Shown here one piece after another: positions 41,484 through 54,700 of a stretch of DNA of 64,000 nt. The DNA is from Nitrospirota bacterium (GTDB lineage: Bacteria; Nitrospirota; UBA9217): contig CAVVOB010000012.1 in NCBI GenBank assembly GCA_963749655.1, positions 192,001 through 256,000 of the forward strand, written 5' to 3'. The notes below the pieces were generated by a model that saw only the letters and a list, made by a program, of their open reading frames with translations, ran no database searches and was not told where the DNA came from. Both the position numbers and the translations under genes were made by a program. Positions within the stretch are counted from its first letter, which is position 1; each line of letters opens with the position of its first letter.

Positions 41484-41693
41484 GGGAACGTGATTGTAAA
41501 CGTTCAAGGTGAAACGGGAAAAGGGAAAAGAAAATCGTTGTTGGGAGCTCCATCCCGTTCGTCACCCGATCCTGGTGCACTGAGTAAGGAACAGACGGTA
41601 AACCTGGATTTTGCCTTGATTTTCCTCTGATTCCCCGTATATAATGTCGCTTCGCGGCTGAATCCCGGCCTTGCAATGAGGTATAATCATCCC

Positions 41694-41921
41694 ATGGCGG
41701 AAAAAAAATTCGAAGCGGCGATGGAGCGTCTTGAGGAGATTGTCCAGGACCTCGAAAAAGGCGACCTTCCCCTTGAACAATCGCTGAAACTGTTCGAGGA
41801 GGGCGTCAAGCTTTCCCGCATCTGCACGAAACGGCTGGACGAAGCGGAACGTAAGGTGGAGATCCTGGTCAAGGACAAGAACGGAACGATCAAGGCCGAG
41901 CCGTTCGAGGAAGAGGAGTAA
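41694..41921 (+). CDS. xseB: Exodeoxyribonuclease VII small subunit
   Basis: FEAAMERLEEIV..LE.GDLPLEQSL..FEEG; upstream of ispA-dxs. Confidence 0.95.
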   Translation: MAEKKFEAAMERLEEIVQDLEKGDLPLEQSLKLFEEGVKLSRICTKRLDEAERKVEILVKDKNGTIKAEPFEEEE

Positions 41922-41923
41922 TT

Positions 41924-42000
<77 letters not shown>

Positions 42001-42011
42001 CCGAGTTAATC

Positions 42012-42902
42012 ATGGACATCAAGATATACCTCAAGAAGAAAAAAGAGCTCGTTGACAAATCACTCGAAAAGCTCGTGCCCCAGGCCAAGACCTTTCCTCC
42101 ATCGATCCATGAGGCCATGCGCTACAGCCTCTTTGCCGGCGGCAAACGCGTACGGCCCATTCTCGCGATCGCTGCCGCGGAATCGCTCGGCGCGAAGACA
42201 GCGGACCTGCTTCCCATTGCAGGGGCGCTGGAGCTGATCCATACCTACTCCCTGATCCATGACGATCTGCCTGCCATGGATGACGACGACTTCCGGCGCG
42301 GGCAGCCCACGTGCCACAAAAAATTCGGCGAAGCGATCGCGATCCTCGCCGGCGACGGGTTGTTGACCATGGCCTTCGAGACGCTGTCCGATCCCAGGCG
42401 CCTGAAGGCGGTCCCCGCAGCTAGGCTCCTGCCGATCATCCGGGAGATTGCGTTTGCATCGGGCGCTTTCGGCATGGTGGGCGGTCAGGTTGTGGACATG
42501 GAGTCGGAAGGCAGGGAGATCGATTTTCCCACACTCGAATACATTCACACCCGCAAGACCGGCGCCCTGATGCGCGCATCAGTGCGCGTCGGAGCGCTGT
42601 ATGCCAAGGCGGGCAAGCGGCAGCTGCTGGCGCTGACGCATTACGGGGAAATGGTGGGCCTGGCCTTCCAGATCGCCGACGACATCCTGGACATCACCGG
42701 CAAGCAGGAAGAGATCGGCAAGGACGTGGGCAGCGATATCAAGAAGGGCAAGAAGACCTTTCCCGCCTTTTACGGTCTGGAAGAGTCGCGCCGCAGAGCG
42801 GGCGAAGTTGCAGACAGGGCAGTCCAGGCGCTCGCCGGCTTCGGGCGCAAGGCAGACCCGCTCAGGGAACTGGCGAAATATATCGTGCAGAGAGTGAATT
42901 GA
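42012..42902 (+). CDS. ispA: Farnesyl/geranylgeranyl diphosphate synthase
   Basis: GGKRVRP, DDLPAMDDDDFRRG, KTG, FQIADDILD. Confidence 0.95.
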   Translation: MDIKIYLKKKKELVDKSLEKLVPQAKTFPPSIHEAMRYSLFAGGKRVRPILAIAAAESLGAKTADLLPIAGALELIHTYSLIHDDLPAMDDDDFRRGQPTCHKKFGEAIAILAGDGLLTMAFETLSDPRRLKAVPAARLLPIIREIAFASGAFGMVGGQVVDMESEGREIDFPTLEYIHTRKTGALMRASVRVGALYAKAGKRQLLALTHYGEMVGLAFQIADDILDITGKQEEIGKDVGSDIKKGKKTFPAFYGLEESRRRAGEVADRAVQALAGFGRKADPLRELAKYIVQRVN

Positions 42903-42906
42903 CAGC

Positions 42907-43090
42907 AGGGTCCAGGGTCCGGTAAAAACTGGGTTCAGGGTCCGGTAGCAAGGGTCTGGTAGAAACAGGGTCAAGGGTCCAGTAACGAGGGTCCGATAAA
43001 AACTGGGTCCAGGGCCCGGTGGCAAGGGTCAAGGGTGGGGTATTTCCTGGCCCCTGGACCCCGGCCCCTGACTTCCCGGCCCCTGACTTT
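42907..43090. repeat. AGGGTCC-based heptamer array with an inverted arm
   Basis: Many agggtcc/gggtcca units, then cctggcccctggaccccggcccctgac. Confidence 0.85.
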
Positions 43091-43102
43091 TGAGAGGTAA
43101 TC

Positions 43103-45025
43103 ATGATTCTCGACAAGATTCAGAACATTGACGACGTGCGGGCACTGGCCCCGGCAGAGCTTCAGCCGCTGGCCGATGACGTGCGCCAGGAGATCATCGA
43201 CACGGTGGCGAAAACAGGCGGCCATCTTGCGCCGAGCCTCGGCGTCGTGGAGCTGACCGTTGCGCTCCATTACGCCTTCAATACGCCGCAGGACCGCATC
43301 GTATGGGACGTGGGGCATCAGGCTTATGCGCACAAGATTTTGACCGGCAGACGCGCGCAGTTTCCCACTCTCAGGCAGCACGGCGGCCTGAGCGGGTTCC
43401 CGAAGCGCGACGAGAGTTCCCACGACCATTTCGACGTGGGCCACGCGAGCACCTCGATCTCGGCAGCCCTGGGCATGGTCGCGGCCCGCGACATCAGCGG
43501 CGGCGACTTCAAGGTGATCGCCGTGATCGGCGACGGCTCGATCTCGGCGGGCCTTGCCTTCGAAGGCATGAACCAGGCAGGGCACCTGAAAAAGGATCTC
43601 ATCGTCATCCTGAACGACAACGAGATGTCCATTTCGCCGAACGTGGGCGCGCTGTCGTCCTACCTCAGCAGGATGCTGACGGGCAACTTTTACACGCGCC
43701 TGCGCCAGGAGACCAAGCAGTTCCTGCAGGGCATTCCCAAGGTCGGCGAATCCATGTTCAACCTCGCGAAGAAGGCCGAAGACTCCATCAAGGGCCTGAT
43801 GTCTCCGGGGATGCTCTTCGAGGACCTCGGCTTCCAGTATGTCGGACCCATCGACGGCCACAATATCAGCCATCTGCTCGAAACCTTCCGGAACATCAAG
43901 GGCTACACCTGGCCGGTGCTGGTCCACGTGATCACCAAGAAGGGAAAGGGCTGCGAGTTCGCCGAGTGCCGTCCGTCAAAGTACCATGGAACGCCGCCCT
44001 TCGACCCTGATACGGGAAAGGTCATCACCAAGAAACAGTCCATCATGAGCTACACCGAGGTCTTCGGGAAGACCATGATCAGGCTCGCCGAAGAGAACGA
44101 GCGGGTCGTCGCGATCTCGGCGGCGATGTCCGAAGGCACGGGACTCGACCTGTTCGCCGAGCAGTTCCCCGGCCGTTTCTTCGACGTGGGCATCGCGGAA
44201 TCGCACGGCGTGACCTTTGCCTGCGGCCTCGCCGTGGAAGGGCTGCATCCCGTTGCGGCCATCTACTCGACGTTCACGCAGCGGGCCTACGACCAGATCG
44301 TCCACGACCTCTGCCTGCAGAACCTTCCCGTCACGCTGGCGCTCGACCGCGCCGGTCTCGTAGGCGAGGACGGACCCACGCACCACGGGGTGTTCGATAT
44401 CGCCTATCTCCGCCATGTGCCGAACATGGTCGTGATGGCGCCCAAAGACGAGAACGAGTTCCAGCACATGATCAAGACCGCCGTGGAGCACCCCGGGCCG
44501 ACGGCGCTGCGCTACCCGCGCGGCATCGGCTGCGGCGTGCCCATGGACCAGGAGCTGACGACGCTCCCGATCGGCAAAGCGGAGGTCATCAAGGAAGGGA
44601 GCGAAGCGGCCATCATCGCCATCGGCAACATGGTCTGTCCTTCCATCGAGGCGGCGAAACGGCTCGCCGACGAGGGAATGTCCGTCGCGGTCGTGAACGC
44701 CCGGTTCGTGAAGCCCCTGGACGAAGAGCGGATCATTGCCTTCGCGAAAAAGACCGGCAGGATCATCACGGTGGAGGAGCATGTGCTCCAGGGCGGCTTC
44801 GGCAGCGCAGTGCTCGAATGCCTCGACGCGCGGGGCATCACGGGGGTCAAGACGCTTCGCATCGGCCTTCCCGACGCCTACGTCGAACACGGCACCCAGG
44901 CGGTGCTCCGGAAAAAGTACGGCCTCGACGTGGACGGGATCTATACCTCGGTCAAAGCGTTCATCGAAAGGTCGCGGCTCAAGGTGGTGACTCCGGTGGC
45001 GGCAATACGGATGAAAGACGCGTAG
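43103..45025 (+). CDS. dxs: 1-deoxy-D-xylulose-5-phosphate synthase
   Basis: GGHLAPSLG, WDVGHQAY.HK, GDG...LNDN, DVGIAE, DRAG..G.DGPTH. Confidence 0.97.
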   Translation: MILDKIQNIDDVRALAPAELQPLADDVRQEIIDTVAKTGGHLAPSLGVVELTVALHYAFNTPQDRIVWDVGHQAYAHKILTGRRAQFPTLRQHGGLSGFPKRDESSHDHFDVGHASTSISAALGMVAARDISGGDFKVIAVIGDGSISAGLAFEGMNQAGHLKKDLIVILNDNEMSISPNVGALSSYLSRMLTGNFYTRLRQETKQFLQGIPKVGESMFNLAKKAEDSIKGLMSPGMLFEDLGFQYVGPIDGHNISHLLETFRNIKGYTWPVLVHVITKKGKGCEFAECRPSKYHGTPPFDPDTGKVITKKQSIMSYTEVFGKTMIRLAEENERVVAISAAMSEGTGLDLFAEQFPGRFFDVGIAESHGVTFACGLAVEGLHPVAAIYSTFTQRAYDQIVHDLCLQNLPVTLALDRAGLVGEDGPTHHGVFDIAYLRHVPNMVVMAPKDENEFQHMIKTAVEHPGPTALRYPRGIGCGVPMDQELTTLPIGKAEVIKEGSEAAIIAIGNMVCPSIEAAKRLADEGMSVAVVNARFVKPLDEERIIAFAKKTGRIITVEEHVLQGGFGSAVLECLDARGITGVKTLRIGLPDAYVEHGTQAVLRKKYGLDVDGIYTSVKAFIERSRLKVVTPVAAIRMKDA

Positions 45026-45103
45026 AGAAGCAATGCGGAATTCGGAATGAAAGCTGTGGTTTCAATTGCGTTGTGAATTGTGGATTAGAACACAAGGCAG
45101 TTG

Positions 45104-45185
45104 GAACCACGGATGAACACGGTTTAATAACCTTGTAATTCAATGAAAGAAGTCATCCGTGTCTATCCGTGTTAATCCGTGGTTA
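45104..45185. repeat. 10-mer periodic palindromic element, preceded by GCGGAAT heptamers at about 45032
   Basis: aaccacggatgaacacgg ... atccgtgtctatccgtgttaatccgtggtt. Confidence 0.85.
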
Positions 45186-45209
45186 AATGCTTTTTGATAC
45201 GGGCGCCGG

Positions 45210-45845
45210 TTACGGCGTCTTTTTCTTTTCTTCCTGCCTCAACTCGTATCCGTAGCCGCCGATCCTGATGTCCGTGAGCTTTCCGTTTCTGAAGGTGAGA
45301 ATGCGGACAAAGCGGTTCGGTCCGAGATTGTAGGTCCATTCTTCGATCGTTACAAGAGTTTTCTGGACCAGCCCGGTTTCCAGCCGAGCGCTTTTTTCTT
45401 CCTGCCTCGTGTCTTTCCACGTGGGCTCGCCGCACTTGGCAATCACGTCGCTCGTCCGTTCTCCGGTTGAAAGGGACTGTTCGGTGCATTCCCGCGCCGG
45501 GGTCTTCGTATTCCCGCTGTATCCGTAGCCGCCGGTCCCGATGCGGAACACCTGCCCGTTTTTCAGCGTCACGATTCGCGTAAATTTGCTCGGTCCGAAG
45601 TCGTACGTCCACTCATCAACGGTCACGTAGGTTTTATGTCTCACTCCCGGGGAAGTGAAGTCGACGATCTCCTCCTGGTGGGATTCTTTGGAGGACGGTT
45701 CACCGCACTTCATGAGAAGATCAACGCGGGAATCGCCGGCTGATATGATGCCGTTGGTGCAGTCGAGCGTTGCGGCGAACAGGGCTGTGCCGGGGAGTGC
45801 CCAGACGATCGCCACCATGGCAAATAGTATTCCCTTTTTCTTCAT
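45210..45845 (-). CDS. Secreted protein with two DUF2845 repeats
   Basis: Two copies of C....S.G.......KCGEP...EWTY..GP..F.RI.T..NG. Confidence 0.85.
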   Translation of the reverse strand: MKKKGILFAMVAIVWALPGTALFAATLDCTNGIISAGDSRVDLLMKCGEPSSKESHQEEIVDFTSPGVRHKTYVTVDEWTYDFGPSKFTRIVTLKNGQVFRIGTGGYGYSGNTKTPARECTEQSLSTGERTSDVIAKCGEPTWKDTRQEEKSARLETGLVQKTLVTIEEWTYNLGPNRFVRILTFRNGKLTDIRIGGYGYELRQEEKKKTP

Positions 45846-46074
45846 TCGGTAATCTCCGTCCTGCTGATAATTCGACCCGTACATCTGACTAAAGTTTATC
45901 GTTTGGTGGATTGGACGTCAATCGGCAATAATTCAATAATCGCCGTTCACCTTATGACTCCGTCATTCCTGCGAAGGCTGGAATCCAGAGCTTAAGATTC
46001 TACAGTATTTGCAGATTCGACGCACTTTGCAGCATAAATATTTTTGCTTTGCCTACATCAAAAAGATTGTAACG

Positions 46075-46103
46075 TTGACAGCTCCTCCGTGTTCTGATAC
46101 GCT
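46075..46103 (+). promoter_or_regulatory. Sigma-70-type promoter for tlyA
   Basis: TTGACA-17-TACGCT. Confidence 0.6.
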
Positions 46104-46132
46104 TCATGGTGAAGGATCGTTCATCCCCACCC

Positions 46133-46894
46133 ATGTCCACCAGCGATAAACAAAAACCGAAAAAGATCAGACTCGACCGGCTCCTTGCGGAGCGGGGCCT
46201 TGCGGCAAGCAGGGAGCGGGCGCAGGCGCTGATAGTAGCCGGCCAGGTGCTCGTGAACGGACAGAAGCAGGACAAGGCCGGTTCGCCTGTTGCCGGAGAC
46301 GCAGACATCCGGATCCTCGGCGAGCAACTCCCCTATGTGAGCCGCGGCGGATTGAAGCTTGAAAAGGCGCTGCAGGAATTTCGCGTGAATGTCGAAGGCA
46401 AGGTTGCCGTGGACATCGGCGCGTCGACGGGCGGGTTCACGGACTGCCTGCTCCAGCACGGTTGCGCGAAAGTCTATGCCGTCGATGTGGGCTACGGCCA
46501 GATCGCATGGAAACTCAGGCAGGACCCCCGCGTCACGGTTATTGAGCGGACCAACATCCGCACGATGGATCCGTCGCTCATTCCCGAGGCAGCGGACATC
46601 ACGGTCATCGACGTTTCCTTCATTTCCCTTGATAAAGTGATCCCCTCTGCGCTCATGTTCCTGAAGCCGGAAGGCGAGATCATCGCGCTCATCAAACCCC
46701 AGTTCGAGGTGGGCAGGGAACAGGTGGGCAAGGGCGGCATCGTGCGGGACGAGGCGGCGCGGGATGCGGCAGTCGGAAAAGTCGCCGAGTTCGCGGCCGA
46801 CCTCGGCATGGAGGTGCGGGGCATCGTCCCTTCGCCGATCACCGGTCAGGACGGAAATGTCGAGTATTTAATTCATGCGATATGCCGGCCCTAA
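46133..46894 (+). CDS. tlyA: TlyA-family rRNA 2'-O-methyltransferase
   Basis: S4 domain (RLD), YVSRGGLKL, DIGASTGGFTD, DVSFISL, LIKPQFE, GNVEY. Confidence 0.95.
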   Translation: MSTSDKQKPKKIRLDRLLAERGLAASRERAQALIVAGQVLVNGQKQDKAGSPVAGDADIRILGEQLPYVSRGGLKLEKALQEFRVNVEGKVAVDIGASTGGFTDCLLQHGCAKVYAVDVGYGQIAWKLRQDPRVTVIERTNIRTMDPSLIPEAADITVIDVSFISLDKVIPSALMFLKPEGEIIALIKPQFEVGREQVGKGGIVRDEAARDAAVGKVAEFAADLGMEVRGIVPSPITGQDGNVEYLIHAICRP

Positions 46895-47313: not shown

Positions 47314-48819
47314 ATGAACTGCTCTGTGCCAGTTTACGCTCATTCCTCCGCACTATCGCGGTTCATGAACGCCCTTCACCGTCTCGGTGAGCTCCTGGGG
47401 AGCGGCGATCAGCAAGCAACATCGCCGTTGAAGGACCGCAATTTTCTGTTCAAAACCATACTTGATTCGATCAGCGACGCGGTCCTCGTCGTTGGACTGG
47501 ATCGCCGCATCGTGTTTGCCAACCCCGCCTCATGCGTGTTCTTCGGCTACAGCATGGAAGAGCTGCATGGACAAACCACCGAAATGATCTATCCCGATCG
47601 GGAGTCTTATGAAAAGGCCGCCGAAGAACCCTGCGCATCCCTGCTGCAGGGGAAGCGCCTCCTCATGGAGTTCGCGTTCAAGCGGAGGGACGGCGGCGTT
47701 TTCGAAGCGGAAACGCTCGGCGCTGTGCTGCGTGACCTGCGCGGAGCGCCCGTCGGCTTTCTTGCCATGATCCGCGATATTACGGAGAGAAAAAGATTGG
47801 AATCGGCGCTTTGGCGGAGCGTGGAACATTACCGGGATCTCCTCTCAGCCATCGAAGCACGGCACCTTATCTATACCCATGACGCGAACGGAAACTTCAC
47901 GTACCTCAGTTCCTTGGTGGGTGCAATACTGGGGTATTCGCCGGAAGAGTTCATGACGCACTTCAGCAGGTTCATGACGGACCATCCGGCCAACGCCGAA
48001 GCCGTCAAGCGGACGGCGCTCAGCATGCGGGGAGAGCAGCAGCCTGCCTATGAAGTCCAGATCTTTCATAAGAACGGCGAGCGCCGGTGGTTCGAGGTCG
48101 TCGAAACTCCCCTCCGGGGGCCCGACGGCACCATCGTTGCAGTTCATGGCATCGGGCTCGACTGCACCGACCGTAAACGCAGCGAGGAGCTGTTGATCGA
48201 GAGCGAAACGCGCTTCAGGAACATTTTCGAGTCGGCCCCAATCGGAATGCACATGTACGAGCTCCGTGCCGACGGCAGGCTGGTCTTCATCTGCGCCAAT
48301 CCGGCCGCCGACCGGATTCTGGGTGTCGATAACAGCGCCTTTATCGGAAAGACTATTGAAGAGGCGTTTCCTCCCTTGGCGGGAACGGAGATCCCGGACC
48401 GGTATCGCGAGGCAGCGTCCGCGGGAACTTCCTGGCGTTCCGATAATGTGCAGTACGAGAACGGACTGATCCGGGGGGCCTACGAAGTCGCTGCCTTCCA
48501 GACATCGCCCGGGATCATGGTCGCGGCCTTCATGGACATCACCGAGCGGAGGAGAAGAGAGGAGGAACTCGGACGTCTGAATGCGGAATTGCGGGAAGCC
48601 TCCGAGAAGGTCCGGGTTCTCAAGGGTCTGCTGCCGATCTGTTCATACTGCAAACGGATCAGGGACGACAACGGCAATTGGGAGCAGATCGAGTGGTACA
48701 TCAAAACGCGTTCCCAGGCCGAGTTCAGTCACGGCATCTGCCCGGAGTGTATGAAGAAGAGGTTCCCTCCCGGTCCGCTCTCGATCCAGGACCACGAAGA
48801 TGACGACGATCGTTCGTGA
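47314..48819 (+). CDS. Triple-PAS protein with Cys-rich C-terminal tail
   Basis: RDITERK, DCTDRK, DITERR; LLPICSYCKRIRDD...FSHGICPEC; upstream TTGACA-17-TATCGT at about 47169. Confidence 0.85.
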   Translation: MNCSVPVYAHSSALSRFMNALHRLGELLGSGDQQATSPLKDRNFLFKTILDSISDAVLVVGLDRRIVFANPASCVFFGYSMEELHGQTTEMIYPDRESYEKAAEEPCASLLQGKRLLMEFAFKRRDGGVFEAETLGAVLRDLRGAPVGFLAMIRDITERKRLESALWRSVEHYRDLLSAIEARHLIYTHDANGNFTYLSSLVGAILGYSPEEFMTHFSRFMTDHPANAEAVKRTALSMRGEQQPAYEVQIFHKNGERRWFEVVETPLRGPDGTIVAVHGIGLDCTDRKRSEELLIESETRFRNIFESAPIGMHMYELRADGRLVFICANPAADRILGVDNSAFIGKTIEEAFPPLAGTEIPDRYREAASAGTSWRSDNVQYENGLIRGAYEVAAFQTSPGIMVAAFMDITERRRREEELGRLNAELREASEKVRVLKGLLPICSYCKRIRDDNGNWEQIEWYIKTRSQAEFSHGICPECMKKRFPPGPLSIQDHEDDDDRS

Positions 48820-48961: not shown

Positions 48962-48990
48962 TTGACAAAAGCCCGCCAAAGTTTTACTCT
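48962..48990 (+). promoter_or_regulatory. Sigma-70-type promoter for the REC-LpxC gene
   Basis: TTGACA-17-TACTCT. Confidence 0.6.
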
Positions 48991-49032
48991 ATCTTCACTT
49001 TAGACCGTACCGCCCGTCAGGAATAATTTATT

Positions 49033-50361
49033 ATGAACCCTATCTGTATCGTAGACGACGAAGCATCCATCTGTACCACCGTTGCAGGCATCCTGAAAGA
49101 CGAAGGGTATGAGTCCGCCATCTTTCCCGATGCCGAGAGTCTGTGGCAGAAGCTCGACACCCTGGAGCCCTCGCTCGTTCTTCTGGATATCTGGCTTCCG
49201 GGCATAGACGGCATGCAGCTCCTGAAGCGGCTGCATGAACGGTTCCCCGCGGTCCCCGTCATTATGATGAGCGGTCATGCGGGCATCGATGCGGCGGTAG
49301 CGGCGATAAAAGCCGGGGCCTTCGATTTTCTGGAAAAGCCCCTGCACCTCGAGGTCCTGCTCGACAAGGTGGCGTCCGCCCTGAAACACCGGCCCGCGGG
49401 CCGGAGCGTGGAGCTGCCGTCGGATACGAGGCTCGAGATAGCCAACGCCGATCTTTCGATCCCTCCCGGCACCGTGGAAGTGATGGATTCCCGCGAGCCC
49501 CAGCGCACGCTCAGGGGAAACGTGGTCCTGAACGGCATCGGACTCCTGAGCGGCAGGAATACGGGCATCATCCTGAGCCCCCTCGGCGCCAACGAAGGGA
49601 TCGTCTTTCAGACCCTTGACGGCCAGACCATCCGCGGGCATATCACCTCGCTCGAGGATTTCGCGCGCGGCGGCCCGTCGAAGACCTTCTCGGCCAACTC
49701 CACGACGCTGGACAACGGCAGGCGGCGCGTGCGCACCGTCGAGCACCTCATGGCGGTCCTTTCCATGTACGGCATCACCAACGTGCTCATCAAGGTCAAC
49801 GACGAGATCCCGAACATCGACGGCTCGGCCAAGGACTTCTGCGACCTCATCGAGGAAGCGGGGATCGAAGAGCAGTCCGGCTTCACCAAAGTCGCCGTCA
49901 TCCGCCGGAAGATCGGCGTGGGAAACGAGGCCAGGCATGAAAAGCATCTCTTTGCCGAGCCTTACGAGGGGTTCGAGGTATCGATGCGGGTGGATTACCC
50001 TGCGCCCATAGGCGAACAGACGCTCTCGTTCAATCCTGAACAGGGGTCTTTTGTAAAGGATATCGCCCCCGCCCGCTCTTTCAATACGTTCGAGAACATC
50101 GAAATGGCGCAGAAGCTGGGCAAGGTCGGCGGCGGGTATCTCCATTCCCACATCATCATGTACGAAGGCAAGGTCATCAACACCGAGCTCCGGTATCCCG
50201 ACGAATTCGTACGCCATAAGATACTGGACCTGATCGGCGACCTCTACCTCCTCGGCCTGCCCATCCGGGGACGCATCACCGCCAACATGACCTCCCACGG
50301 CTTCAACCAGGCCCTGGTGCAGCGCCTGTACCAGGCCATCCAGAACAATTCCGGAAGATGA
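49033..50361 (+). CDS. lpxC: Response-regulator receiver fused to UDP-3-O-acyl-GlcNAc deacetylase
   Basis: REC: IVDDE, LLDIWLP, MSGH, FLEKP. LpxC: QRTL, TVEHL, DGSA, APARSF, RHKILDLIGD, SH. Confidence 0.9.
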   Translation: MNPICIVDDEASICTTVAGILKDEGYESAIFPDAESLWQKLDTLEPSLVLLDIWLPGIDGMQLLKRLHERFPAVPVIMMSGHAGIDAAVAAIKAGAFDFLEKPLHLEVLLDKVASALKHRPAGRSVELPSDTRLEIANADLSIPPGTVEVMDSREPQRTLRGNVVLNGIGLLSGRNTGIILSPLGANEGIVFQTLDGQTIRGHITSLEDFARGGPSKTFSANSTTLDNGRRRVRTVEHLMAVLSMYGITNVLIKVNDEIPNIDGSAKDFCDLIEEAGIEEQSGFTKVAVIRRKIGVGNEARHEKHLFAEPYEGFEVSMRVDYPAPIGEQTLSFNPEQGSFVKDIAPARSFNTFENIEMAQKLGKVGGGYLHSHIIMYEGKVINTELRYPDEFVRHKILDLIGDLYLLGLPIRGRITANMTSHGFNQALVQRLYQAIQNNSGR

Positions 50362-51766: not shown

Positions 51767-54700
51767 CTACGGTCCGGCAATGCTGTTGTATATGCCCTTT
51801 GTTTCCTCTGAGGGCTCGACCCCGAAGGCTGCCGACAGCGCCGTCTTGCAGCGGCGATAAACCTTCATGACCTCCGCCCGTGAACCCGCCTGCTGATGAC
51901 AGAGCATGAGATTCTGATAAAATTCTTCCGCCACTTCATCCACTTCCAGCCCCCGTTCATAGCACTCGATCGCTTTGCGGATAGCTGATTGCCGGTTTCG
52001 GATTGCCGCGTGCGCGTTGTCTTCCCCTTTCGAGCTACCCTGCTCCAGCCAGTAAGCGCCGAGCGTGCTCACCGCGCGGAGATACTTGCTGCGCAGACGC
52101 TCCCTGGCCGACATTGTCCACGGTTTTTCTTCGTCTGCCTCCAGGAAATGGCCGCGATAGAGCCGGAGCGCTCTTTCGAGCTGCTGCAGCACTTCGGATT
52201 TCGGAATCCGGACAGTGGATGTATGCCCGCAGTCCCTTGCCTCTGCTTTGTTTGTATATTCCGCATTCCGCAATACGCATTCCGCAAATTCGAGCTGCTT
52301 CTCGAAGGCCCATGCGTCCACCCGGCAAAATCGCCGATCAAGACTCAGTCTCCCCTCGCGGAGCCGGGTCACGTCGTCATTCCCCAGCAGCTGCCGCAGG
52401 CGGTGGAGCGTGGTCTTGAATGAAATGCGGGCGGCGTCTCCCTCCGCCTCGGGCCAGAGCGCGTCGATGATGCGCTCTTCGGATACATCGCGACCGCCGA
52501 ACGCGATGACCGCCTTCAGCATCTCCAGGGGCTTCTTCTGGACCTTGCCGCTGAAGGAAACCGGCTCGTCCCGCAGCAGGAGCCTGAATTCGCCAAGCGT
52601 CTCGATCCTTACCGGCCAGGGCCAGCTTTCAATGTGGAGGGGCGGCTCTTCGGGAACGAGATTGCGCTTGCGGATCAGATCCCGCACGAATTCCGTTTCG
52701 ATCCCGGCTTCGAGCGCCTTCATGCACAGGGGGGTTATCTCCTGTGAAATCCAGAGGGTATAATTGAACTGGGCGAACCCCTTTTTTCGTCCCAGCGCCA
52801 TGGCGTCGCGCAAACGGCGCATACCGGCCGCTTCCCGATGCTCTGCGAAATCCGTGCCCGCCTCTGAGAGGAGGCAGAAAAATTCAACGAGATCGCTTTT
52901 CACGTCCTGCCCGATCCGGCGGCATGCGGCGGTCTGCGCCCTGGCCTGCGCATGCTTTCCTGTCGCGCGCAGCAAATGCGCCAAAGCGAGCCCGCTCTTG
53001 ACCTGGGCGCCCAGGAAGCCGATCCGCTGCGCGAGATCGTTCGCCGTCGCGGCGACAGACAGGGCGCGGGGAATGTCGCCTTCATGCGCGTAGTGGCAGG
53101 CCAGCATGAGGTGATAGTAGAACTTGTCGAGAGGGCGGCCCTGTTCCAGCGCAGAGGACATGGTTTCCAGGAGCTTCTCGGATTCGGCGAGGTTCCCCGA
53201 GGAAAGAGAAGCGCATACGCCCATGGTGAGGATCAGGTAATCCCAGCGGTGGACGCCGCTTTCCCTCGATATCTTCAATCCTTCATGCATGAGCGACATG
53301 CACCGGTCGTAGGAACAGACCGCCCATGCGAACCAGGCGTCCGCCATCTTCCCCATGCACTGCGCAAGCGGCGACACGCTGCGGCTCGACGCCAGCAAGC
53401 GCCTGACGGCTCCCAGGGCATGCTCGCACATCGTCCGGTCTCCCGCCTGGATGAAATGGGTGAACAGATAGTATCCCGTCAGCAGCCGCAGGCTCGGGTC
53501 TGCGGCGCCGTCGTTGAGAAGCGCCAGCGCCTTTTCCTTCCACAGGTCGAAGGACGGGTGCCGCGGTTGGCGGAGTGAAAGCGCCATGAAGATGCGGCTC
53601 GTGACATGTCCCTCCGTCTGCGGGGACGGGAACAGGGGGTATTCCTTCATCAGATCGCCGAGCAGCGCGATCCAGGCGTCCAGCTGGCCGAGGTCCCCCA
53701 ATTCCTGGATGATGGACTCCGTGACGCCAGACCAGGCGAGAAAGATCCCGAGGCGTCGCGGCGCTTTTTGAAAAGCTCGAAGGCTTTTTCAAAGCATCGA
53801 CGTCCCTCCCGAAGGTCGAAGGGCATCCTGCACACGCCCAACCAGTACGTCATCCACGGCTCTCCGCCGATGACCTCGTCGGGAACGGACGTGAGGTGCG
53901 CCTCGAGCGCACGGCTCCTTCCCTGGGACACCAGGACCCGTGCGATCGCAAGGACCGTCGGTACAAAGCTCTTCCACGCTCCCGCCAGCCGGTACAGTTC
54001 CACCGCGTCCTCGGGCTGTCCTTCACGCTCGAGGAGCTTCCCTGCCTTTTGGAGGAGCTCCTCTATCTGCTCGGTGGAATAGGTCTGCCGCGCCCTGGCC
54101 TGGAGGAATTCCCTGAAGAGGGGGTGGTACTGATATACCGGATGGGGGAGGGAGCGCTGCTCCGTGAAAAAGTGGTTGCGGCTGAGCGTTGCAAGAACGG
54201 CTCCCGCGTCATCCCTGCCTGTCAGGGCCGACGCCGAGGGAGGAAAAATGCGCGGCAGGAAGGCGGTTTTGAGAAGGAAGGACCGTGTTTCCGGGTCCGT
54301 CTTTTCGAACAGCTCGGTTGCAAAGTAGTCGAAGAACTCCTGGGGGTTGAAACGGTCCATATCCATGGGAGCTCCGGCGAGCGTCCTCATCCGTTCCATC
54401 AGAAGCATGAGGCCTGCCGCCCAGCCCAGGGTCGTCTGCTGAATGCGGGTCAGAAGCTCCACCTTGAGCCCGCTCCGGCGGCCGGACCTGAAGAGCGCCC
54501 CGGTCTCGTTCATGTCGAACTTGAGATCCTCCCATCCGATGCCGTGGACCTTATTGTAGGTCTGCAGGACCGCCAGTGCAGGCGGAGGCGCGCCGCGGCT
54601 CATGATCACGACCGAGATGCCCTCGGGAACGACGGACAGCGCTTCGCGGATCATGTCATGAAAGGGAGCGTCGTCGGCGATATGGTGATAATTGTCGAGA

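Follow-up and report, generated by a model that had tools for sequence, protein, structure and literature searches.

The receiver-LpxC gene and its two domains

The DNA considered here is a window of 64,000 nucleotides from a Nitrospirota bacterium (GenBank assembly GCA_963749655.1, contig CAVVOB010000012.1, positions 192,001 to 256,000), and all window positions below count from its first letter. Within it, positions 49033..50361 of the plus strand encode a protein of 442 amino acids (aa) in which a phospho-receiver domain of the NtrX type is joined to LpxC, the deacetylase that sets the rate of lipid A synthesis and commits the bacterium to outer-membrane lipid A. The features of the gene are listed here with the evidence for each.

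49033..50361, plus strand: receiver-LpxC fusion gene, 442 aa (open reading frame call with Pfam and NCBIfam profiles).
49033..49386, plus strand: NtrX-type receiver domain, aa 1-118, with D8, D9, D52, W54, S80 and K102 (PF00072).
49186..49188, plus strand: codon of the phosphoacceptor Asp52 (Asp in 120 of 120 close homologues).
49387..49500, plus strand: linker, aa 119-156, with a low-confidence middle and then a strand entering the LpxC fold (predicted local distance difference test, pLDDT, and divergence).
49501..50331, plus strand: LpxC deacetylase domain, aa 157-433 (PF03331, TIGR00325 and Foldseek).
49741..49746, plus strand: E237-H238 (Escherichia coli E78 and H79), the catalytic base and a zinc ligand (alignment; roles from a figure legend of PMC13333357).
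50074..50151, plus strand: Insert II and acyl-tunnel segment, remodelled, with S349, N351, Y369 and H373 (E. coli T191, G193, S211 and A215).
50215..50298, plus strand: HKILD zinc motif (H395, K396, D399), D403 and the catalytic H422 (E. coli H238, K239, D242, D246 and H265).

The fusion protein matches Response_reg at residues 4-113 with 100 bits and the LpxC family PF03331 at residues 157-433 with 247 bits (cut-off 27), and its TIGR00325 (lpxC) score is 208 bits against a cut-off of 187. An earlier note, made from the DNA letters alone, had read an uninterrupted 442-aa frame joining the two domains and had asked how widely relatives share it. The protein does lie in one frame with both Pfam domains, and the relatives have it too: at least 119 other homologues among the matches listed are 82-87% identical to it over 99-100% of the query and carry both domains. 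The source names among them include two Nitrospirota and one Nitrospirae. An assembly artefact is ruled out by these full-length two-domain homologues, which occur throughout those listed, and the fusion is confirmed as a real gene. Sequencing runs searched for this genome included none holding it (best share 0.09). Contigs of relatives in an RNA library cross the linker (49330-49508 and 49405-49566), with DNA carry-over possible. A genome scan gave full or near-full matches at 16 of 80 loci, including Nitrospirota, Desulfocapsaceae, Myxococcota, Oligoflexales and Leptospirales, and a cultured carrier of both LpxC forms is Desulfopila sp. IMCC35006 (WP_136813984.1). Databases name these fusion proteins plainly LpxC or NtrX.

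The functional residues of both halves are strongly conserved. In the 120 top matches, query included, D8, D9, D52, S80 and K102 of the receiver and E237, H238, H395, K396, D399 and D403 of the LpxC domain are invariant, and H422 is kept in 119. Among 105 distinct fused receivers the phospho-Asp is present in 102 and the Lys in 104. Across 12 orthologues the receiver has nonsynonymous divergence (dN) of 0.05-0.17 against synonymous divergence (dS) of 0.66-1.95, with little difference in dN between it and the enzyme domain. Purifying selection acts on both domains, and the linker evolves faster than either. The residues first read from the sequence were thus borne out, both for an intact NtrX-like receiver (DD, D, S and K, here D8, D9, D52, S80 and K102, in the NtrX clade) and for an LpxC that keeps its zinc and catalytic residues (E237, H238, H395, K396, D399, D403 and H422). 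The three departures from the usual LpxC motifs noticed at that time (GLH to GLL, RTF to RSF and GH to SH) are real, and four more were found, G193N, S211Y, A215H and K262M in E. coli numbering.

The predicted fold finds LpxC structures as its top Foldseek matches, with a root-mean-square deviation of about 2 Å over about 286 columns; the match to Pseudomonas aeruginosa LpxC has E 5e-30 and a TM score by target of 0.85. Aligned to the P. aeruginosa structures (E. coli numbering), the fused domain carries H19L, T191S, G193N, S211Y, A215H, K262M and G264S, and is unchanged at E78, H79, D105, R190, F192, G210, H238, K239, D242, D246 and H265. These tunnel and substrate-site changes are fixed or nearly so in 35 aligned members of the subfamily. 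Positions 19, 193 and 215 are L, N and H in 34, 35 and 35 of the 35, compared with 113 stand-alone enzymes in which H is found at the first in 109, G at the second in 75 and A at the third in 83. The lining of the acyl tunnel keeps G210 and has His for A215 and Asn for G193 in every member aligned, and other fused LpxC forms also have a larger residue (F, V or L) at position 215. A mutational scan of E. coli LpxC (PMC9842644) allows T191S and G264S and gives fitness values for S211Y and K262M; at the 12 least tolerant positions (its Table 1) the fused domain has the identical residue or an allowed substitution in 11. Judged on the aligned residues, this subfamily has an intact catalytic core and a rebuilt acyl tunnel.

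Replacement of the ordinary enzyme and descent of the fusion

The earlier note had proposed looking for a second lpxC in the genome. One is present and is of the ordinary type (G000:C20:133561-134514, G000 being this genome; 351 bits against 249), and the fused LpxC domain is 36% identical to it. Because this second gene is present and the substrate site of the fused copy differs, the question arises whether lipid A synthesis is still the task of the fused copy, and gene content in relatives bears on it. A search of the class covered 64 genomes of one family, 32 of them good (completeness of 90% or more, contamination of 5% or less), the LpxC type being judged by score and frame length with a subset of loci read directly. 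The 32 good genomes divide into 10 with both forms, 11 with the ordinary form only (counting G020, which also has a broken fused copy), 10 with the fused form only (counting G028, a partial match) and one with neither, where about four would be expected if the two were independent (Fisher p 0.023, kin not being independent). The ordinary lpxC locus is fixed in the family, divergent from a TPR gene and ABC-ATPase genes. In four genomes (G038, G059, G062 and G064) this native locus is assembled with its flanking genes contiguous and has no lpxC remnant.

The rest of the pathway is retained alongside the fused gene. Fused-only genomes have lpxB in 5/5 tested and lpxA in 8/9, and the operon of G038 holds lpxD, fabZ, lpxA, lpxB, msbA and lpxK above their NCBIfam cut-offs, together with lpxI- and kdtA-like genes that fall below theirs. 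In the phylum of G010, which we take to be probably SAR324, exactly one LpxC occurs in each of 61 sampled genomes, and it is of the fused type in 32 (13 read directly, the rest typed by frame length and score). The G010 genome, one chromosome of 4.26 Mb, carries lpxA, lpxB and lpxK, and its only LpxC is the fused one. Since it is the sole LpxC in many genomes with the lipid A pathway, the fused protein is very probably an active LpxC of lipid A synthesis. The apparently active enzyme of the earlier note becomes, on this gene content and the catalytic residues kept, a very probable one. The replacement of ordinary LpxC in many relatives points to direct signal control of outer-membrane synthesis as what the fusion may offer.

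No difference in LpxA chain-length segments was found between fused-only and ordinary-only genomes in the segments compared, which are identical or nearly so (G053 and G049, for example); a motif filter left 13 of 33 loci out of this comparison, including all fused genomes of the phylum of G010. G050 has a broken ordinary lpxC, G020 and G031 each have a broken fused copy, and in G032 the frame is short. Since NtrY too is fragmented in G050, G066 and probably G020, these lpxC defects may be sequencing indels, and they were not used as evidence of loss. In G038 and G000 lpxI and lpxB are separated by an oxidoreductase gene and an aminotransferase gene (L277:9381-11451 and L278:6815-9095 (minus strand)). 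We take this pair to be like gnnA and gnnB (NCBIfam matches below cut-off), and it suggests that the family may make a diamino-glucose lipid A.

The receiver can be followed back to NtrX. The best NCBIfam regulator match of the fusion protein is NtrX (NF051870), at 112 bits against a cut-off of 600 and over residues 3-119 only, and fused receivers group with NtrX receivers at 100/98 when tested against 11 other enhancer-binding-protein receivers. Among 52 representatives chosen from 150 listed, 38 have a receiver and LpxC, and 15 of those have an AAA+ domain as well. Long NtrX-type fusions occur in 15 of 251 genomes of the phylum of G003 (Desulfopila), where they are the sole LpxC in 15/15 and have ntrY directly upstream in 8/15. 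A GAFTGA, Walker B or arginine-finger motif is kept in 0/15 long representatives. In the class of G016 (51 genomes) a stand-alone LpxC was found in 20 and a long-frame LpxC in 23; of these long frames, 8 were read as fusions. A 66-row tree places every fused LpxC domain in a single clade (100/98), two members of which have no receiver match, and a 208-row FastTree likewise unites them; the stand-alone LpxC sample in these trees is biased towards matches to this query. The forms make a series from ntrY followed by a whole NtrX::LpxC fusion, through proteins with a decaying AAA+ domain, to receiver-LpxC.

On these trees and architectures the receiver of the fusion is a descendant of NtrX by way of whole-NtrX::LpxC fusions. 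The protein itself is derived from NtrX and is not an NtrX, having neither the AAA+ nor the HTH domain. The simplest history would be a single ntrX-lpxC fusion and then repeated loss of the middle domains, a history whose root and order we infer. Stand-alone lpxC adjoins ntrY-ntrX at three loci (L023, L025 and L027), and at 8 of the 10 loci L153-L162 lpxC stands beside a conserved small gene and ntrY. In these sets of loci lpxC is directly upstream of the small gene and ntrY, with ntrX following where the locus reaches that far, a conserved lpxC-ntrYX link in several phyla.

The copy in the window has a different origin from its ordinary companion. In the 66-row tree the subfamily contains an 11-row clade (100/100) made up of the Nitrospirota and Desulfocapsaceae copies and others related to them, and duplication of the genome's own lpxC is ruled out, grouping with native Nitrospirota lpxC being rejected by an approximately unbiased (AU) test (p-AU 1.9e-5, under LG+G4, no mixture model). 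Between this genome and Desulfopila the fused LpxC domains are 83% identical and the ordinary enzymes 41%. By these comparisons the subfamily has spread by horizontal transfer, and the fused copy of this genome came from another lineage and took its place beside the ordinary lpxC.

NtrY and the proposed control of LpxC

This genome has one clear NtrY ortholog (G000:C10:9224-11461, minus strand), unlinked to the fused gene, which is on C12. A native NtrX (G000:C38:26805-28238) is unlinked to ntrY and has the receiver closest to the fused one, at about 40%; it reads DIA instead of the usual DIW after the phospho-Asp. NtrY is found in all 32 good genomes of the family and NtrX persists in the four tested, and in this genome and family NtrY would have two receivers. 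In the phylum of G010 NtrY is present in 32/32 fused and 25/29 stand-alone genomes, and among the best 30 of 58 ntrY loci ntrX follows ntrY in 18/18 stand-alone loci compared with 0/12 fused loci. An NtrX ortholog (417 bits or more, with at most 36 candidates scored per genome) was found in 0/32 fused genomes and in 7/7 stand-alone control genomes. Weaker NtrX matches occur in 11 of the fused genomes, and the four placed in a tree fall outside NtrX. Since NtrY is retained in the fused genomes of this phylum while no NtrX was found in any of them, it is the likely partner kinase, and in these genomes the fusion appears to be its sole remaining NtrX-type receiver. That NtrY sets the phosphorylation of Asp52 is a reading we hold with good confidence.

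At five positions that we assume, from OmpR-type work, to govern kinase specificity, the fused receiver has SITGI, as do the NtrX proteins of L024 and L289, and the genome's own NtrX (SVTDV) agrees at 2/5; this weak sign was not relied on. In G091 ntrY lies about 4 kb upstream of the fused gene on the same strand. At L012, L163, L165, L167-L169 and L274, loci from the phylum of G010, a gene that we take to be nusB-like comes next after the fused gene.

In the mechanism proposed here, the fusion would place a working lipid A deacetylase under two-component control. The membrane kinase/phosphatase NtrY (here on contig C10) would set the phosphorylation of Asp52, and this would alter the catalytic output of the attached LpxC through a receiver-driven change of conformation or of dimer state, so that lipid A flux could follow an envelope signal without new transcription. 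That NtrY-set phosphorylation changes LpxC catalysis in this way is in our view the best explanation, one we favour with modest confidence, and it is probable that phosphorylation alters lipid A flux by one route or another. The idea of the earlier note, that flux could be switched directly by phosphorylation, keeps its foundation in an enzyme that is very probably active and in an intact receiver under purifying selection; the effect on catalysis is the part that we infer.

Several observations weigh against this view. For three substitutions, H19L, G193N and A215H, the E. coli scan gives no fitness value, and its allowed list does not include A215H (PMC9842644), although blanks may be library dropout, H19I and H19M being present and the G193 rows partly covered; the properties of the enzyme must accordingly differ from those of E. 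coli LpxC. Two AlphaFold single-chain runs (predicted template modelling scores, pTM, of 0.78 and 0.68) did not reproduce the pose of receiver and enzyme. The anchor gene of the native lpxC locus was not found in G053, and no lpxA match was found in the fused-only G077. With regard to the partner, NtrY presence discriminates little because it is also found in 25/29 stand-alone genomes, and the absence of NtrX, besides being bounded by the number of candidates scored, may be a single event because the fused genomes of the phylum of G010 are probably one clade. The native NtrX on C38 and about 128 receiver-like matches in this genome make another kinase possible, and Caulobacter NtrY is mainly a phosphatase and dispensable for NtrX phosphorylation (bioRxiv 2021.04.17.440287).

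The end of the protein differs from that of stand-alone LpxC. Fused enzymes stop 42-54 residues after HKxxD, compared with a median of 64 in stand-alone enzymes, and a non-polar C-terminal end is found in 3/33 of this subfamily compared with 38/48 stand-alone enzymes. The degron of E. coli LpxC is a non-polar C-terminal tail (PMC12444477), and because the fused forms are without such a tail, phospho-control may have replaced proteolytic control. The stand-alone LpxC of Nitrospirota, Desulfobulbia and others (for example L001:1411-2316, minus strand) has an Ala/Val/Leu-rich tail resembling the E. coli degron. The lost tail and shorter C-terminus could equally mean that the receiver governs the location of LpxC, by docking on membrane-bound NtrY, or its lifetime, by gated proteolysis, and not its catalytic rate. 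Neisseria Ght, proposed to act by localising LpxC (PMC12444477), offers a parallel, and a linker that is partly disordered in the models (pLDDT below 50 at 122-134 and 120-138 in the two folds), with no reproducible domain pose, would suit an arrangement of this kind. A degron-like tail is, however, no proof of proteolysis in these phyla, and FtsH control of LpxC is reported to be largely restricted to Enterobacteriaceae (PMC12444477). We consider control of location or lifetime the less likely reading, though not a negligible one.

A signal running in the opposite direction seems improbable. LpxC would then be constitutive, and substrate or product occupancy would act on the receiver, which would in turn serve NtrY, and native NtrX if there is one, as a phosphate sink or modulator. 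The remodelled acyl tunnel would fit such a sensor, as would the native NtrX, and often an ordinary lpxC, that this genome and its relatives keep, but in 32 genomes of the phylum of G010 no NtrX was found to receive the signal and the fused protein is the sole LpxC. It is less probable still that the receiver is a passenger of an operon fusion, with an enzyme that it does not regulate. Chance fusion of neighbours is possible given the stand-alone lpxC genes beside ntrY-ntrX (L023, L025 and L027) or beside the small gene and ntrY (8/10, L153-L162), and the subfamily representative P0123, on a 925-base contig, has no receiver match; yet the AAA+ motifs have gone (0/15) while the phospho-Asp (102/105) and Lys (104/105) are kept, and the receiver and enzyme domains differ little in dN. 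Least likely of all, and very doubtful, is that a narrowed tunnel takes some other N-acetyl sugar nucleotide while the ordinary lpxC makes lipid A, for although a second, ordinary lpxC is found in this genome and in 10/17 genomes compared, and the subfamily has near-fixed L, N and H where stand-alone enzymes mostly have H, G and A (E. coli positions 19, 193 and 215), the native gene has been cleanly lost from four relatives with lpxA and lpxB retained, the fused protein is the sole LpxC of the single-chromosome G010 with lpxA, lpxB and lpxK, little or no difference was seen between fused-only and ordinary-only relatives in the LpxA segments inspected (G053 and G049, for example), and T191S, G264S, S211Y and K262M are tolerated in E. 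coli (PMC9842644).

Control of the attached enzyme by phosphorylation is thus the reading we keep. In its widest form it would make the fusions a widespread and undescribed class of lipid A enzyme, in which NtrY switches LpxC catalysis by phosphorylation in place of proteolytic control, and this subfamily a portable module with a rebuilt tunnel that crosses phyla, displaces the native lpxC and becomes wired to the host NtrY. We regard the chances of that whole picture as evenly balanced.

Known systems and the surroundings of the gene

The receiver-LpxC protein combines two known kinds, LpxC and the response regulators with enzymatic output. A receiver joined to an enzymatic output domain is a known response-regulator class, represented by CheB, REC-GGDEF and REC-HD-GYP proteins; the output here is an essential biosynthetic enzyme, whereas theirs are signalling enzymes. 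Compared with LpxC of known structure (E. coli, P. aeruginosa and Aquifex aeolicus), the fold is the same and the zinc and catalytic residues are all kept, but the fusion adds an N-terminal receiver, has a remodelled tunnel (H19L, G193N, A215H and S211Y) and is without the non-polar C-terminal tail. With NtrX (NF051870) it shares the receiver clade and the D-x-W and (S/T)GH signature, and its longer relatives are whole NtrX::LpxC proteins behind ntrY; it differs in having no AAA+ or DNA-binding domain, in having an enzyme as output and in not being encoded next to ntrY here. The LpxC-FabZ fusion (NF009667), of about 440-460 aa, likewise joins LpxC to another domain, but the partner there is a C-terminal dehydratase and the protein lies outside the fused-receiver clade. 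In a related bacterial group, DVU2934 of Desulfovibrio vulgaris is also a two-component regulator dedicated to lpxC, its single mapped target (PMC3333781), but it is a protein of its own, binding to the DNA upstream of lpxC, with no fusion. The passage covered from bioRxiv 2021.11.05.467447 only mentions the Desulfovibrio operon.

Links of NtrYX to the envelope and to lpxC are already on record, the latter at the level of transcription. NtrYX represses lpxC transcription in two alphaproteobacteria (PMC12444477, PMC7240162), lpxC mRNA being 8.8-fold higher without NtrYX in Rhodobacter as an indirect effect (PMC7240162). The control proposed for the fusion would differ in acting on the attached enzyme. 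LpxC activity is tuned allosterically by LapB and MurA (PMC13333357), and PMC12444477 lists proteolysis, MurA, Ght and transcriptional repression by NtrYX as controls of lpxC or its product. In the text searched, PMC12444477 contains neither fusion nor fused, and the terms fusion, receiver and response regulator are absent from PMC13333357 (2026); LpxC is not among the entries in the supplements of PMC4558063. No published description of a receiver-LpxC fusion was found, though subscription journals, older census reviews and bioRxiv supplements may list the architecture, and no listing of LpxC as a response-regulator output domain was found in the literature searched, older census reviews lying outside that search. 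Over the analysis as a whole, the phospho-switch interpretation is plausible and has been strengthened.

If true, receiver-LpxC would be a fourth mode of LpxC control beside proteolysis, protein partners and transcription, the modes that two recent reviews describe, and would give NtrY/NtrX, a system with an unsettled signal and core role, one definite output at the outer membrane. Allosteric control of LpxC has been called an emerging question and an open goal (PMC13333357), and the fusion is a one-protein system in which it could be tested. The family offers a natural replacement series of genomes with the ordinary form only, both forms and the fused form only. What the present genome contributes is an ordinary copy side by side with the fused one, relatives in which the replacement is clean, a rebuilt tunnel and the absence of the tail.

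Upstream of the gene lies one further feature.

48962..48990, plus strand: putative promoter-like site, with a -35 box TTGACA at 48962-48967, a 17-nt spacer and a -10 box TACTCT at 48985-48990 (sequence).

The earlier note had given the gene its own sigma-70-like promoter. The TTGACA-17-TACTCT site is there, and TTGACA-N17-TAC(T/C/A)CT occurs upstream of 8 of the 19 orthologues examined, this gene included; a promoter consensus scan did not call it, because its -10 box matches at only 3/6, and called a weaker site at 48999-49027 instead. That no cognate kinase is adjacent was stated correctly: the upstream gene (47314-48819, plus strand) encodes a three-PAS protein with a short CxxC-containing tail at its end and, by Pfam, no kinase domain. 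It was rejected as partner kinase on this ground, and no neighbour is common to more than two of the fused loci compared. Within the family the fused gene has no conserved neighbours.

No Rfam families or tRNAs were found in the 64-kb window. A housekeeping run at 41676-46894 includes an S4-FtsJ methyltransferase gene (Pfam) and, by our reading of the translations, what we take to be xseB, ispA and dxs, with a DUF2845 gene inserted on the opposite strand. On the minus strand, 55083-51767 holds a MalT/BTAD-type regulator in two overlapping frames (477 and 644 aa) with a break near 53700; paralogues occur on C14, C19 and C28, and the copy in the window is a frameshift or a sequencing error.

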